A stretch of DNA of 50,384 nt from Flavobacteriales bacterium (GTDB lineage Bacteria > Bacteroidota > Bacteroidia > Flavobacteriales > UBA7430). This document shows, piece by piece, positions 21,775-22,599 of the stretch (position 1 is the first letter of the stretch; each line of letters begins with the position of its first letter). The position numbers were made by a program, and so were the translations under genes. The DNA is taken from assembly GCA_029247585.1 (NCBI GenBank), contig JAQWKY010000005.1:1-50384 (forward strand). Reading direction: 5' to 3'. Below the pieces are notes generated by a model. That model had not been told where the DNA came from. It searched no databases and saw only the letters and a list, made by a program, of their open reading frames with translations.

Positions 21775-22599
21775 TTAGTCATCAAAAGGACTTTTAATTT
21801 TCTCAAGAGCGCTCACAGCAATATGCGTATAAATTAATGTGGTTGACATATTAGAATGACCCAATAACTTTTGAATGTGCGCTATGCCTATACCGTCTTC
21901 CATAAGTTGTGTCGCAAAACTATGTCTTAGGGTATGTAGTGTTACTGACTTGGTGATTTTCGCTTTTTTAACAGCTCTTTTTAAAAATTGACCGGCACTC
22001 TCAGCAGAATACCGCCCCCCTTTTTGCCCCTCAAAGAGAAAATCTTTAGGTCTGTATTTCAGATAGTAAGTTCTTAATAAGCCCAATACCTTGTGGGATA
22101 AAATGGTATATCTGTCTTTCTTACCCTTCGCTTGTCGGACATGAATTAACATTCTACTTGAATCTATATCTTCTTTTTTAAGCGAAAGTAATTCACCTAT
22201 TCTTAGACCTGAACTGTAAATTAAGGCCAATATCGCTCTATGTTTGATATTGTTCGTGCAGCGCAATATATCTGCAATTTCAGACTTACTCAATACTAAA
22301 GGAAGTTTCCGCTCTCTTTGAGTGACTTTTAAATATTCAAATGGAATGACACGATTAAAGATTTCCTTGTAGAATAATTTTAAACCACCAACAATTTGCC
22401 TTTGGTAAGAAGCCGATATACCCTTCACCTTAACCAAGTAATAAATATACTCGAACAAGTCTTTATCAGAGATATTCTTTAAGGGGATATCTTTAAAGTG
22501 CCTCTGAACATGGATCAGGTGACTTTTGTAGCTAATTATCGTTTGCCGGCTGTAACGTTTTAACTCAAGTATTTTAACAAAATCTGTAACAACTTCCAT
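21775..22599 (-). CDS. Tyrosine site-specific recombinase, integron-integrase-like/Xer-like (274 aa)
   Basis: Catalytic residues are visible: GLRIGEL (Arg), HTLRHSFAT (His-x-x-Arg), LLGHS (His), LIYTHI (Tyr). The N-terminal SAM-like domain (RYSRQTIISYKSHL) and the C-terminal ...KSPFDD tail resemble the IntI family. It is transcribed divergently from the cassettes. Confidence 0.9.
   Translation of the reverse strand: MEVVTDFVKILELKRYSRQTIISYKSHLIHVQRHFKDIPLKNISDKDLFEYIYYLVKVKGISASYQRQIVGGLKLFYKEIFNRVIPFEYLKVTQRERKLPLVLSKSEIADILRCTNNIKHRAILALIYSSGLRIGELLSLKKEDIDSSRMLIHVRQAKGKKDRYTILSHKVLGLLRTYYLKYRPKDFLFEGQKGGRYSAESAGQFLKRAVKKAKITKSVTLHTLRHSFATQLMEDGIGIAHIQKLLGHSNMSTTLIYTHIAVSALEKIKSPFDD

Follow-up and report, generated by a model that had tools for sequence, protein, structure and literature searches.

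The integrase gene and its cassette array

We analysed a stretch of 50,384 nucleotides from a Flavobacteriales bacterium (GenBank assembly GCA_029247585.1, contig JAQWKY010000005.1), referred to here as the window. It carries the gene of a tyrosine recombinase, the integrase, next to an array made up of an attI-like site and four cassettes (22696-31555), each closed by a structured AAC...GTT site that resembles the attC sites of integrons. G+C content drops from ~0.43 to 0.30-0.37 over 22000-31600 and is back at ~0.43 from ~32000, and all large open reading frames (ORFs) of 22000-31600 read away from the integrase. The features, in window coordinates, are listed below; genes and cassettes were assigned from ORFs and domain searches, and the integrase gene in addition from Pfam, hidden Markov models (HMMs), alignment and a structural model.

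21775-22599, - strand: integrase gene, intact, encoding a simple tyrosine recombinase of 274 amino acids
22600-22697, + strand: attI-like region, from the integrase start codon to the crossover G|TT, kept in relatives up to GTT and unrelated beyond
22696-25996, + strand: cassette 1, 3.3 kb, four genes, for a thioredoxin-like protein (22747-23184), ApbE (23186-24172), a DUF4266 protein (24156-24377) and a DUF3570 protein (24334-25860)
25876-25998, + strand: site B, attC-like, 123-nt class, 121.5 bits with the covariance model
25997-27195, + strand: cassette 2, one gene (26024-27145; 373 amino acids, DUF4268)
27154-27197, + strand: site C, attC-like, 44-nt class with loop ATTAAAA, a class also seen in relatives' arrays
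27196-30090, + strand: cassette 3, with a gene at 27206-29734 (842 amino acids)
29970-30092, + strand: site D, attC-like, 123-nt class, very AT-rich, 105.9 bits with the covariance model
30091-31555, + strand: cassette 4, two genes (30102-31133, 343 amino acids; 31133-31498, 121 amino acids)
31514-31557, + strand: site E, attC-like, 44-nt class as also seen in relatives' arrays, the last of the array
21297-21382, + strand: tRNA-Ser(GGA), a landmark outside the system, 392 nt past the 3' end of the integrase gene

The attI-like crossover G|TT, with GTT at 22695-22697, stands in the context ...TTTAACAACAAG|TTAGCAC, and a 23-nt inverted repeat (22604-22626 / 22650-22672) lies in the region that precedes it. 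The sites of the window follow a common plan of AAC, a 3-nt spacer, a stem starting GTATA, GTGTA or ATATA, a variable centre, the other arm, a 5-nt spacer and GTT. Site B is laid out as AAC-AAT, a 19-bp stem with its second arm, and TAAAC-GTT. Folded as single-stranded DNA, its bottom strand reaches -28.1 kcal/mol (z -7.2) and its top strand -22.9 kcal/mol (z -5.3), relative to shuffled sequence.

The protein of cassette 2 has a full-length match (E 1.9e-158) to PDC-S11, a candidate single-gene phage-defence family of PADLOC. The product of cassette 3 is a secreted enzyme, a polysaccharide lyase that combines Ig-like and CBM96 domains with a C-terminal sorting domain for type IX secretion. In cassette 4, the 343-amino-acid protein is without a Pfam match and the 121-amino-acid protein belongs to the HIT family, with a weak match to ThsC. 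No cassette gene of the window is present in the other loci fetched, the similarity found there being confined to the sites. The DUF3570 protein of cassette 1 contains a stretch of ~20 aspartates, encoded by a run of GAT and GAC codons (24709-24774).

A recombinase that lacks the IntI insertion

Pfam places the catalytic domain PF00589 at residues 103-261 of the integrase (E 3.6e-39) and the SAM-like N-terminal domain PF13495 at residues 7-83. Comparison of 42 homologues found R133, K158, H222, R225, H248 and Y257 to be invariant. An earlier note on this DNA, made from the sequence alone, had described the protein as having the R-H-R-H-Y catalytic set, an IntI-like SAM-type N-terminal domain and an IntI-like C-terminal tail, and as missing the insertion specific to the integron integrases (IntI); all four parts of the description stood. 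The catalytic set is intact, and the N-terminal block aligns with that of the integron integrase VchIntIA. At the C-terminus, the integrase family has a conserved SP(F/L)D motif (S270, P271, D273), which is shared by IntI1 (RSPLD) and absent from Escherichia coli XerC and XerD in the alignment.

The absence of the insertion is seen in several comparisons. The match to VchIntIA (PDB 2a3v) is split in two, with residues 10-173 of the integrase corresponding to 12-175 and residues 205-271 to 250-316, so that 31 residues of the integrase stand between the blocks where VchIntIA has 74. TIGR02249, an HMM of integron integrases, also matches in two stretches and gives 175.4 bits against a cut-off of 265; with NF011946, another integron integrase HMM, the integrase scores 118.1 bits against a cut-off of 435. 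Direct alignment leaves a 30-residue segment of IntI1, together with its 'AQHTHSTDPRS', without a counterpart in the integrase or in any relative examined, and in a tblastn comparison with intI1 residues 42-273 of the integrase span 274 codons. Both ends of the protein align with IntI1 and VchIntIA, and what it is short of is ~41-43 residues, the IntI-specific insertion. The AlphaFold model of the integrase (predicted local distance difference test score 86.4) runs from a beta-hairpin (151-166) through a helix (169-182), two short strands and a second helix (199-212) to the HxxR helix, with no extra helix between 169-182 and 199-212. In a Foldseek search with this model the top match was VchIntIA (E 3e-17, ~315 alignment columns for 274 residues), and XerA came second. 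We conclude that the IntI additional domain (the I2 helix region) is absent from the integrase by sequence, HMM and predicted structure, and alignment brought no hidden copy of it to light.

Among NCBIfam models the best match is that of the archaeal XerA (NF040815), in one stretch and with 204 bits, below its cut-off of 220; TIGR02249 ranks second, followed by XerD and XerC. The XerA structure 5hxy aligns with the integrase in one piece (E 5e-35), and the NCBI Prokaryotic Genome Annotation Pipeline labels some relatives 'xerA: site-specific tyrosine recombinase/integron integrase'. Identity is 31% to IntI1, 34% to VchIntIA, 31% to XerA and 25-27% to XerC and XerD.

A neighbour-joining tree (270 columns, 200 bootstraps) was computed from 19 family members, IntI1, VchIntIA with its insertion removed, two XerA, XerC and XerD. 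The integrase of one locus (L057, see below), which contains stop codons, was omitted. In the tree, IntI1 and VchIntIA join the family in one clade (100% bootstrap), and XerA, XerC and XerD lie outside. A phylogeny with IntI and XerC/D had been proposed in the earlier note, and in this small tree the family groups with IntI to the exclusion of Xer. As far as a distance tree of this kind can tell, the grouping shows kinship with IntI; the direction of change, that is, loss of the insertion or its primary absence, is not given by the tree.

Junction, cassette ends and sites across the family

In a Flavobacteriales metagenome-assembled genome (MAG; locus L001) the integrase is 97% identical at the amino-acid level to that of the window. 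At the DNA level the two share 96% identity across the gene plus 98 nt of upstream sequence, and 85% toward tRNA-Ser. This identity ends exactly past ...AACAAGTT, the alignment breaking immediately 3' of ...TTTAACAACAAGTT, and nothing is shared beyond, where L001 has genes for a TonB-dependent receptor, a Fur-like regulator and other products. A second relative (P0003), 89% identical to the integrase of the window, was found by exact-sequence lookup as the same protein on seven contigs from different samples. Directly 3' of one GTT these contigs have at least six different sequences and first genes, with products of 201, 187, 246 (TonB_C), 381, 184 and 118 amino acids, and matches to the site model come after the first cassettes. 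In an alignment of nine contigs, seven of them with the identical integrase, attI is conserved through ..TTTAAC(A/G)(A/T)(A/C)AAGTT and all sequences diverge directly after GTT. To judge from these alignments, the pattern indicates recent cassette turnover at a defined attI point.

The ends of the cassettes are complementary in the manner of integron cassettes, in which the R' and R'' of one attC unite in the circular cassette. For 46 consecutive site pairs, the first 8 nt of a cassette past GTT were compared with the 8 nt that precede the AAC of its own site, taken in reverse complement. The mean match between R' and R'' of the same cassette was 5.8 of 8 (mostly 6-7), against 2.99 of 8 in a same-site control (n = 46). 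In the window, the start of cassette 1, GTTAGCACAA (at 22695), is the exact reverse complement of TTGTGCTAAC (25869-25878; 10/10). Cassette 2 starts with GTTACCACAC, which agrees at 9/10 positions with GTATGGTAAC, the sequence preceding the site of that cassette, in reverse complement; for the third pair, GTTGGCAATC and ..TTTGCCAAC, the agreement is 8/10. Pairing of a site with the bases just past its own GTT proved to be the wrong test, as R'' has its partner at the beginning of its own cassette.

Generic scans for AAC...GTT palindromes (7/8 or 9/11 stem rules) matched control strands and flanks about as often as the arrays. They were useless for a survey and were therefore replaced by covariance models, of which that for the 123-nt class was built from seven sites and rebuilt from its own matches. 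In an alignment of 81 sites, 91.6% of the cells are paired, a share that falls to 61% when columns are shuffled and to 30-42% when the register is slid; changes on both sides occur in 16 of the 19 stem pairs, and AAC and GTT are invariant. An independent RNAalifold run on seven sites aligned with MAFFT found compensatory change at 12 of 16 pairs.

Of 74 sites, 61 have two stem arms of the same length and 72 have a left spacer of 3 nt; on the right the spacer measures 5-7 nt. As the arms are mostly equal there is no net bulge, and hence there are no extrahelical bases; the sites have a fixed asymmetric internal loop instead. A position with a conserved A/C mismatch occurs in some sites, and the L-box sequences are clade-specific and conserved within clades. 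Site lengths cluster at 44, 116-127 (~123) and 183-189 (~188) nt, the 44-nt class being represented by five independent instances in relatives' arrays, with covarying stems and the ATTAAAA loop. Of 72 sites folded as single-stranded DNA, 54 have the more stable structure in the bottom strand, the mean advantage of this strand being 1.28 kcal/mol (Wilcoxon P = 6e-6, the sites not being independent). At model-defined pairs, G.T and A.C (47 and 37) reveal no overall strand asymmetry, so that the bias lies in whole-site energies only.

Homologues of the integrase are abundant, with 6394 proteins at E <= 1e-10 in a word-indexed search and 2550 clusters (50% identity) at E <= 1e-30. Among 80 genome loci the integrase gene is strikingly often near a contig end. 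The earlier note had left it to a survey whether homologues in other genomes adjoin AAC...GTT arrays or are ordinary Xer or phage integrases never linked to them. Oriented arrays do stand beside the homologues: in 84 sequences comprising 1.06 Mb around them, the covariance model (E <= 0.01) found 95 sites in 34 sequences. As 31 sites lie upstream on the opposite strand, the layout of the window, and 60 lie downstream on the same strand, the sites almost always point away from the integrase (91/95). Two of the four sites placed otherwise are reverse-strand echoes of the same site. The only real exceptions in orientation are two well-scoring sites that point toward the integrase, one in a Bacteroidota MAG (L007 1316-1437) and one in a Calditrichaeota MAG (L012 1-101).

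In the downstream layout we predicted attI as GTT followed by the reverse complement of the R'' flank of the first site. Its GTT lies ~100-130 nt past the stop codon in 14 of 15 loci and is preceded by TATATAYWA. Integrases of this layout have ~347 amino acids (for example L063 9788-10831 and L038 9779-10822; also P0114-P0119), including a conserved N-terminal extension of ~70 amino acids (M.W.AKLI.H.GE.RIAV.F...W....K.WH.PDT) without a Pfam match. The 345-amino-acid homologues had been suspected of carrying the IntI insertion; their additional length is actually an N-terminal extension of ~70 amino acids. In many of the more distant relatives the extension measures 90-370 amino acids.

Homologues at 45-97% identity in dozens of genomes have the same oriented arrays. 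The hosts include Flavobacterium, Pedobacter, Paradesertivirga, Chryseobacterium, Croceimicrobium and Polaribacter, with the orders Flavobacteriales and Sphingobacteriales represented, and further Marinicella, Alcanivoracaceae, Lysobacterales and Calditrichota. The platform is flanked by different genes in different genomes and is present twice in one genome (L063, L068). Cassettes measure 285-3300 nt and contain genes of unknown function, a defence candidate, restriction-modification genes and, on a plasmid, erm(F).

This plasmid is a mobilizable 48-kb plasmid of Flagellimonas marinaquae (NZ_CP092416.1, L086). Its integrase, 50% identical to that of the window and labelled 'xerA ... /integron integrase', adjoins two cassettes closed by site-model matches (L086 9905-11995). 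The first cassette holds erm(F), reading toward the integrase, and GTTATGCGG at attI corresponds to CCGCATAAC ahead of the site that closes this cassette; the second contains a gene of the dihydrofolate reductase family, with GTTGGCATT and AATGCCAAC as the matching pair. A Tn3-family transposase gene lies beyond the cassettes. The second site of the plasmid (L086 9905-10027) is ~90% identical to the single, chromosomal site of Marinicella pacifica (L032 9172-9294), and the cassette genes of the two differ. This hints at exchange across phyla, between Gammaproteobacteria and Bacteroidota, or at a common source of the sites.

Several arrays of relatives have features of their own. On a complete Croceimicrobium chromosome (L057 10001-10807) the integrase gene has two stop codons and three model sites are still found upstream, which may represent a decaying platform. 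One array (L081) contains a ~270-nt cassette without an ORF (GCAAGAAAAGTAGGC...GGTGAAGCGTT) four times, at about 9905-9630, 8240-8050, 6510-6240 and 3920-3650; at the end of its site, AACGCTTCACC and GGTGAAGCGTT pair perfectly. It could be a promoter or small-RNA cassette. Some cassettes share a 5' motif, GC(A/G)CAAAT(A/T)GCACATTT(G/A), followed by several TTGCCAACGC and then CAAAAGAGCT, which may be a common promoter or leader. It recurs at L001 ~5200-5090, at L081 ~3640-3560, at positions 2100-2190 of the reverse complement of L037 and at a cassette start of L096.

Two regions of the window outside the array also deserve mention. The interval from the integrase gene's 3' end to tRNA-Ser contains three direct repeats of ~104-120 nt (21447-21753), each with the small hairpins GATGTCGAAGACATC and ATCCGCGAAGCGGAT; in the close relative L001 this region is far shorter. 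Rfam has no family for these repeats or for the attC-like sites. A second patch of low G+C (0.29-0.30) follows directly after tRNA-Met (43921-46500) and encodes a 445-amino-acid protein of unknown function and an ion-channel-like protein, with no integrase and no match to the site model.

Interpretation and comparison with known systems

Taken together, the window most likely contains an integron-like gene-cassette platform that consists of a simple tyrosine recombinase without I2, an attI-like site and hairpin-ended cassettes. Sequence comparison supports a site-specific junction, the cassette signature, a conserved site structure and linkage throughout the family; from these patterns we infer catalysis by the window's enzyme, the use of single strands and the basis of polarity. 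As the comparison shows, the point of cassette insertion is the attI-like G|TT, located upstream of the integrase gene at ~100 nt from its start codon. Each cassette is a former circle, which starts with TT and ~6-7 nt that pair with the bases preceding the AAC of the site at its own 3' end, and closes with the G of an imperfect palindrome (AAC, 3-nt spacer, long stem, variable centre, second arm, 5-7-nt spacer, GTT). The enzyme would excise cassettes by recombination between two sites and insert them by recombination between attI and a site. A site would most probably be used as a folded single strand, with the bottom strand slightly favoured, and its polarity would be read from the fixed asymmetric internal loop and the clade-specific L-box. 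The earlier note had envisaged a recombinase lineage that handles attC-like hairpins without the IntI domain, and this is supported by turnover after the attI GTT, the circular-cassette signature and the oriented arrays. We lean towards the more specific proposal that the family is a sister lineage of IntI, which never had I2 or lost it, and which runs true cassette arrays on folded hairpins without extrahelical bases.

A number of observations weigh against this interpretation. An I2-less enzyme working on hairpins contradicts expectation, because the I2 helix is held to be necessary for attC recombination (PMC7790495; Messier & Roy 2001 as cited in PMC4889954). The case for single-strand use, and for a choice of strand, draws on covariation and on a mean of 1.3 kcal/mol among non-independent sites, and the covariation counts for the 81 sites use an alignment fitted to the model. 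In the window, the AT-rich sites C, D and E fold no better than shuffled sequence, and the four-gene cassette 1 is unusually large. No model match was found in 50 of the 84 sequences, many of them with short flanks, but some (L006, L014, L061) with 10 kb on both sides. Finally, the family lies outside the pair IntI1 and VchIntIA, and its own monophyly with respect to IntI has 38% bootstrap in what is a small distance-based tree.

A rival explanation is that the same platform recombines double-stranded, Xer/dif-like sites between the L'-spacer-R' ends, with the palindrome serving another purpose, such as transcription termination or the binding of protein to both arms. The enzyme is without the helix that PMC7790495 ties to single-strand attC use, XerA, a recombinase of double-stranded dif, scores best, the stems are without extrahelical bulges and the L-box is conserved within clades. 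A double-stranded reaction would, however, need neither the covariation of ~19 bp of an otherwise variable stem nor the complementarity that R' at the cassette start keeps to its own R''. The bottom strand is also systematically slightly more stable, and the sites are in direct orientation with a fixed asymmetric loop, so that we regard this explanation as rather unlikely. We give somewhat less credence to the idea that the system is real in the family and that the window holds a fossil, sedentary copy of it without turnover. There are four cassettes only, one of them a four-gene operon, three of the four sites fold weakly and none of the cassettes recurs in other loci. Nevertheless, the reading frame and catalytic residues of the integrase are intact, the closest relative (97% amino-acid identity) has a wholly different array, and identical integrases from metagenomes are followed by different first cassettes.

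Least probable by far, and largely refuted, is that the integrase is an ordinary integrase of a genomic island at tRNA-Ser and that the AAC...GTT palindromes are unrelated repeats of the repetitive extragenic palindrome or terminator type. The distance of 392 nt from the 3' end of tRNA-Ser and the 9 kb of low G+C beyond the integrase would suit an island, but the tRNA-Ser 3' end has no second copy in the window, even with 3 mismatches allowed, and the variable DNA begins at GTT, across the integrase from the tRNA. Of 28 related loci scanned, one (L003) has tRNA genes, ~6 kb from the integrase, and the neighbours of the platform vary. Pfam finds no arm-binding domain in the integrase. Unrelated repeats would show neither orientation nor a cassette signature, whereas 91 of 95 are oriented relative to the integrase.

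If the family is indeed a sister lineage of IntI that runs cassette arrays on folded hairpins, recombination of hairpin-ended cassettes is independent of the I2 innovation. An I2-less relative of IntI with attC-like arrays would be either a natural 'before' state or an independent solution to polarity by way of an asymmetric loop, and the evolution of single-strand site recognition would become directly testable. It would also mean that there is a second, largely unseen integron-like group in Bacteroidota, with members in Gammaproteobacteria and Calditrichota and with copies on plasmids that carry erm(F). The spread of hosts suggests a large overlooked pool of mobile cassettes. With an erm(F) cassette on a plasmid and a candidate phage-defence cassette in the window, the platform may be of consequence for how resistance and defence genes spread in Bacteroidota.

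Previous work touches on this family at several points. Cury et al. 2016 reported a few recombinases without intI_Cterm that fall between IntI and Xer and lie near <3 attC sites; their conclusion was that these proteins are not IntI (PMC4889954). Smyshlyaev et al. 2021 found the insertion 'not fully conserved' in an integron-like subgroup (PMC8138268). Both sets may include members of the present family; no system was described in those studies, whereas here arrays, attI, cassette signature and turnover are documented. Escudero and colleagues present the acquisition of I2 as the innovation toward single-strand recombination, and current work sees in it the step by which a Xer-like enzyme became an integron integrase capable of using folded attC (PMC7790495, PMC4792948). 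Integrons are thought to be nearly absent from Bacteroidetes, for which IntegronFinder 2.0 reported only In0 elements and one complete integron (PMC9024848). Detection tools demand an IntI-specific domain, and plausibly would miss the present system, which scores below the cut-offs of the NCBI IntI HMMs. We found no description of this system in the searchable literature, the coverage of which is incomplete, so that an earlier publication is possible.

Canonical integrons resemble the element in most respects. They too have a tyrosine recombinase beside attI, a G|TT crossover, co-oriented and mostly promoter-less cassettes of 0.3-3 kb, and an imperfect palindrome with AAC and GTT at the cassette end, with R' and R'' complementary. 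Divergent and 'inverted integrase' layouts occur in both, the contents are alike (genes of unknown function, defence and a resistance gene), and the recombinases share a clade in the tree and the SP(F/L)D tail. The differences concern the recognition of the site. Canonical integrons have the additional domain of ~41 residues (I2 region) that defines IntI, and in their attC sites the extrahelical bases bound by I2 set strand and polarity; here the domain is lacking and there is a fixed internal loop of 3 against 5-7 nt. The discrete site lengths (44, ~123 and ~188 nt), the clade-specific L boxes and the prevalence of Bacteroidota among the hosts also set the family apart.

XerA, XerC and XerD are likewise two-domain simple recombinases of the same length without an insertion. 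In contrast to a housekeeping Xer locus, the platform has varied neighbours, two copies in one genome and a copy on a plasmid, and it has cassette arrays rather than a single 28-bp dif site; the tree places the family with IntI. In the pdif modules of Acinetobacter plasmids, discrete gene modules lie between short sites used by Xer-type tyrosine recombinases. These modules have 28-bp XerC/XerD sites, double-stranded and alternating in orientation, which are acted upon by the host Xer proteins, whereas here hairpins of 44-190 nt in direct orientation are accompanied by a dedicated recombinase and an attI. The element works in an integron-like way yet fails the tests that define IntI, namely the additional domain and the extrahelical bases, and it is best filed as an integron variant.

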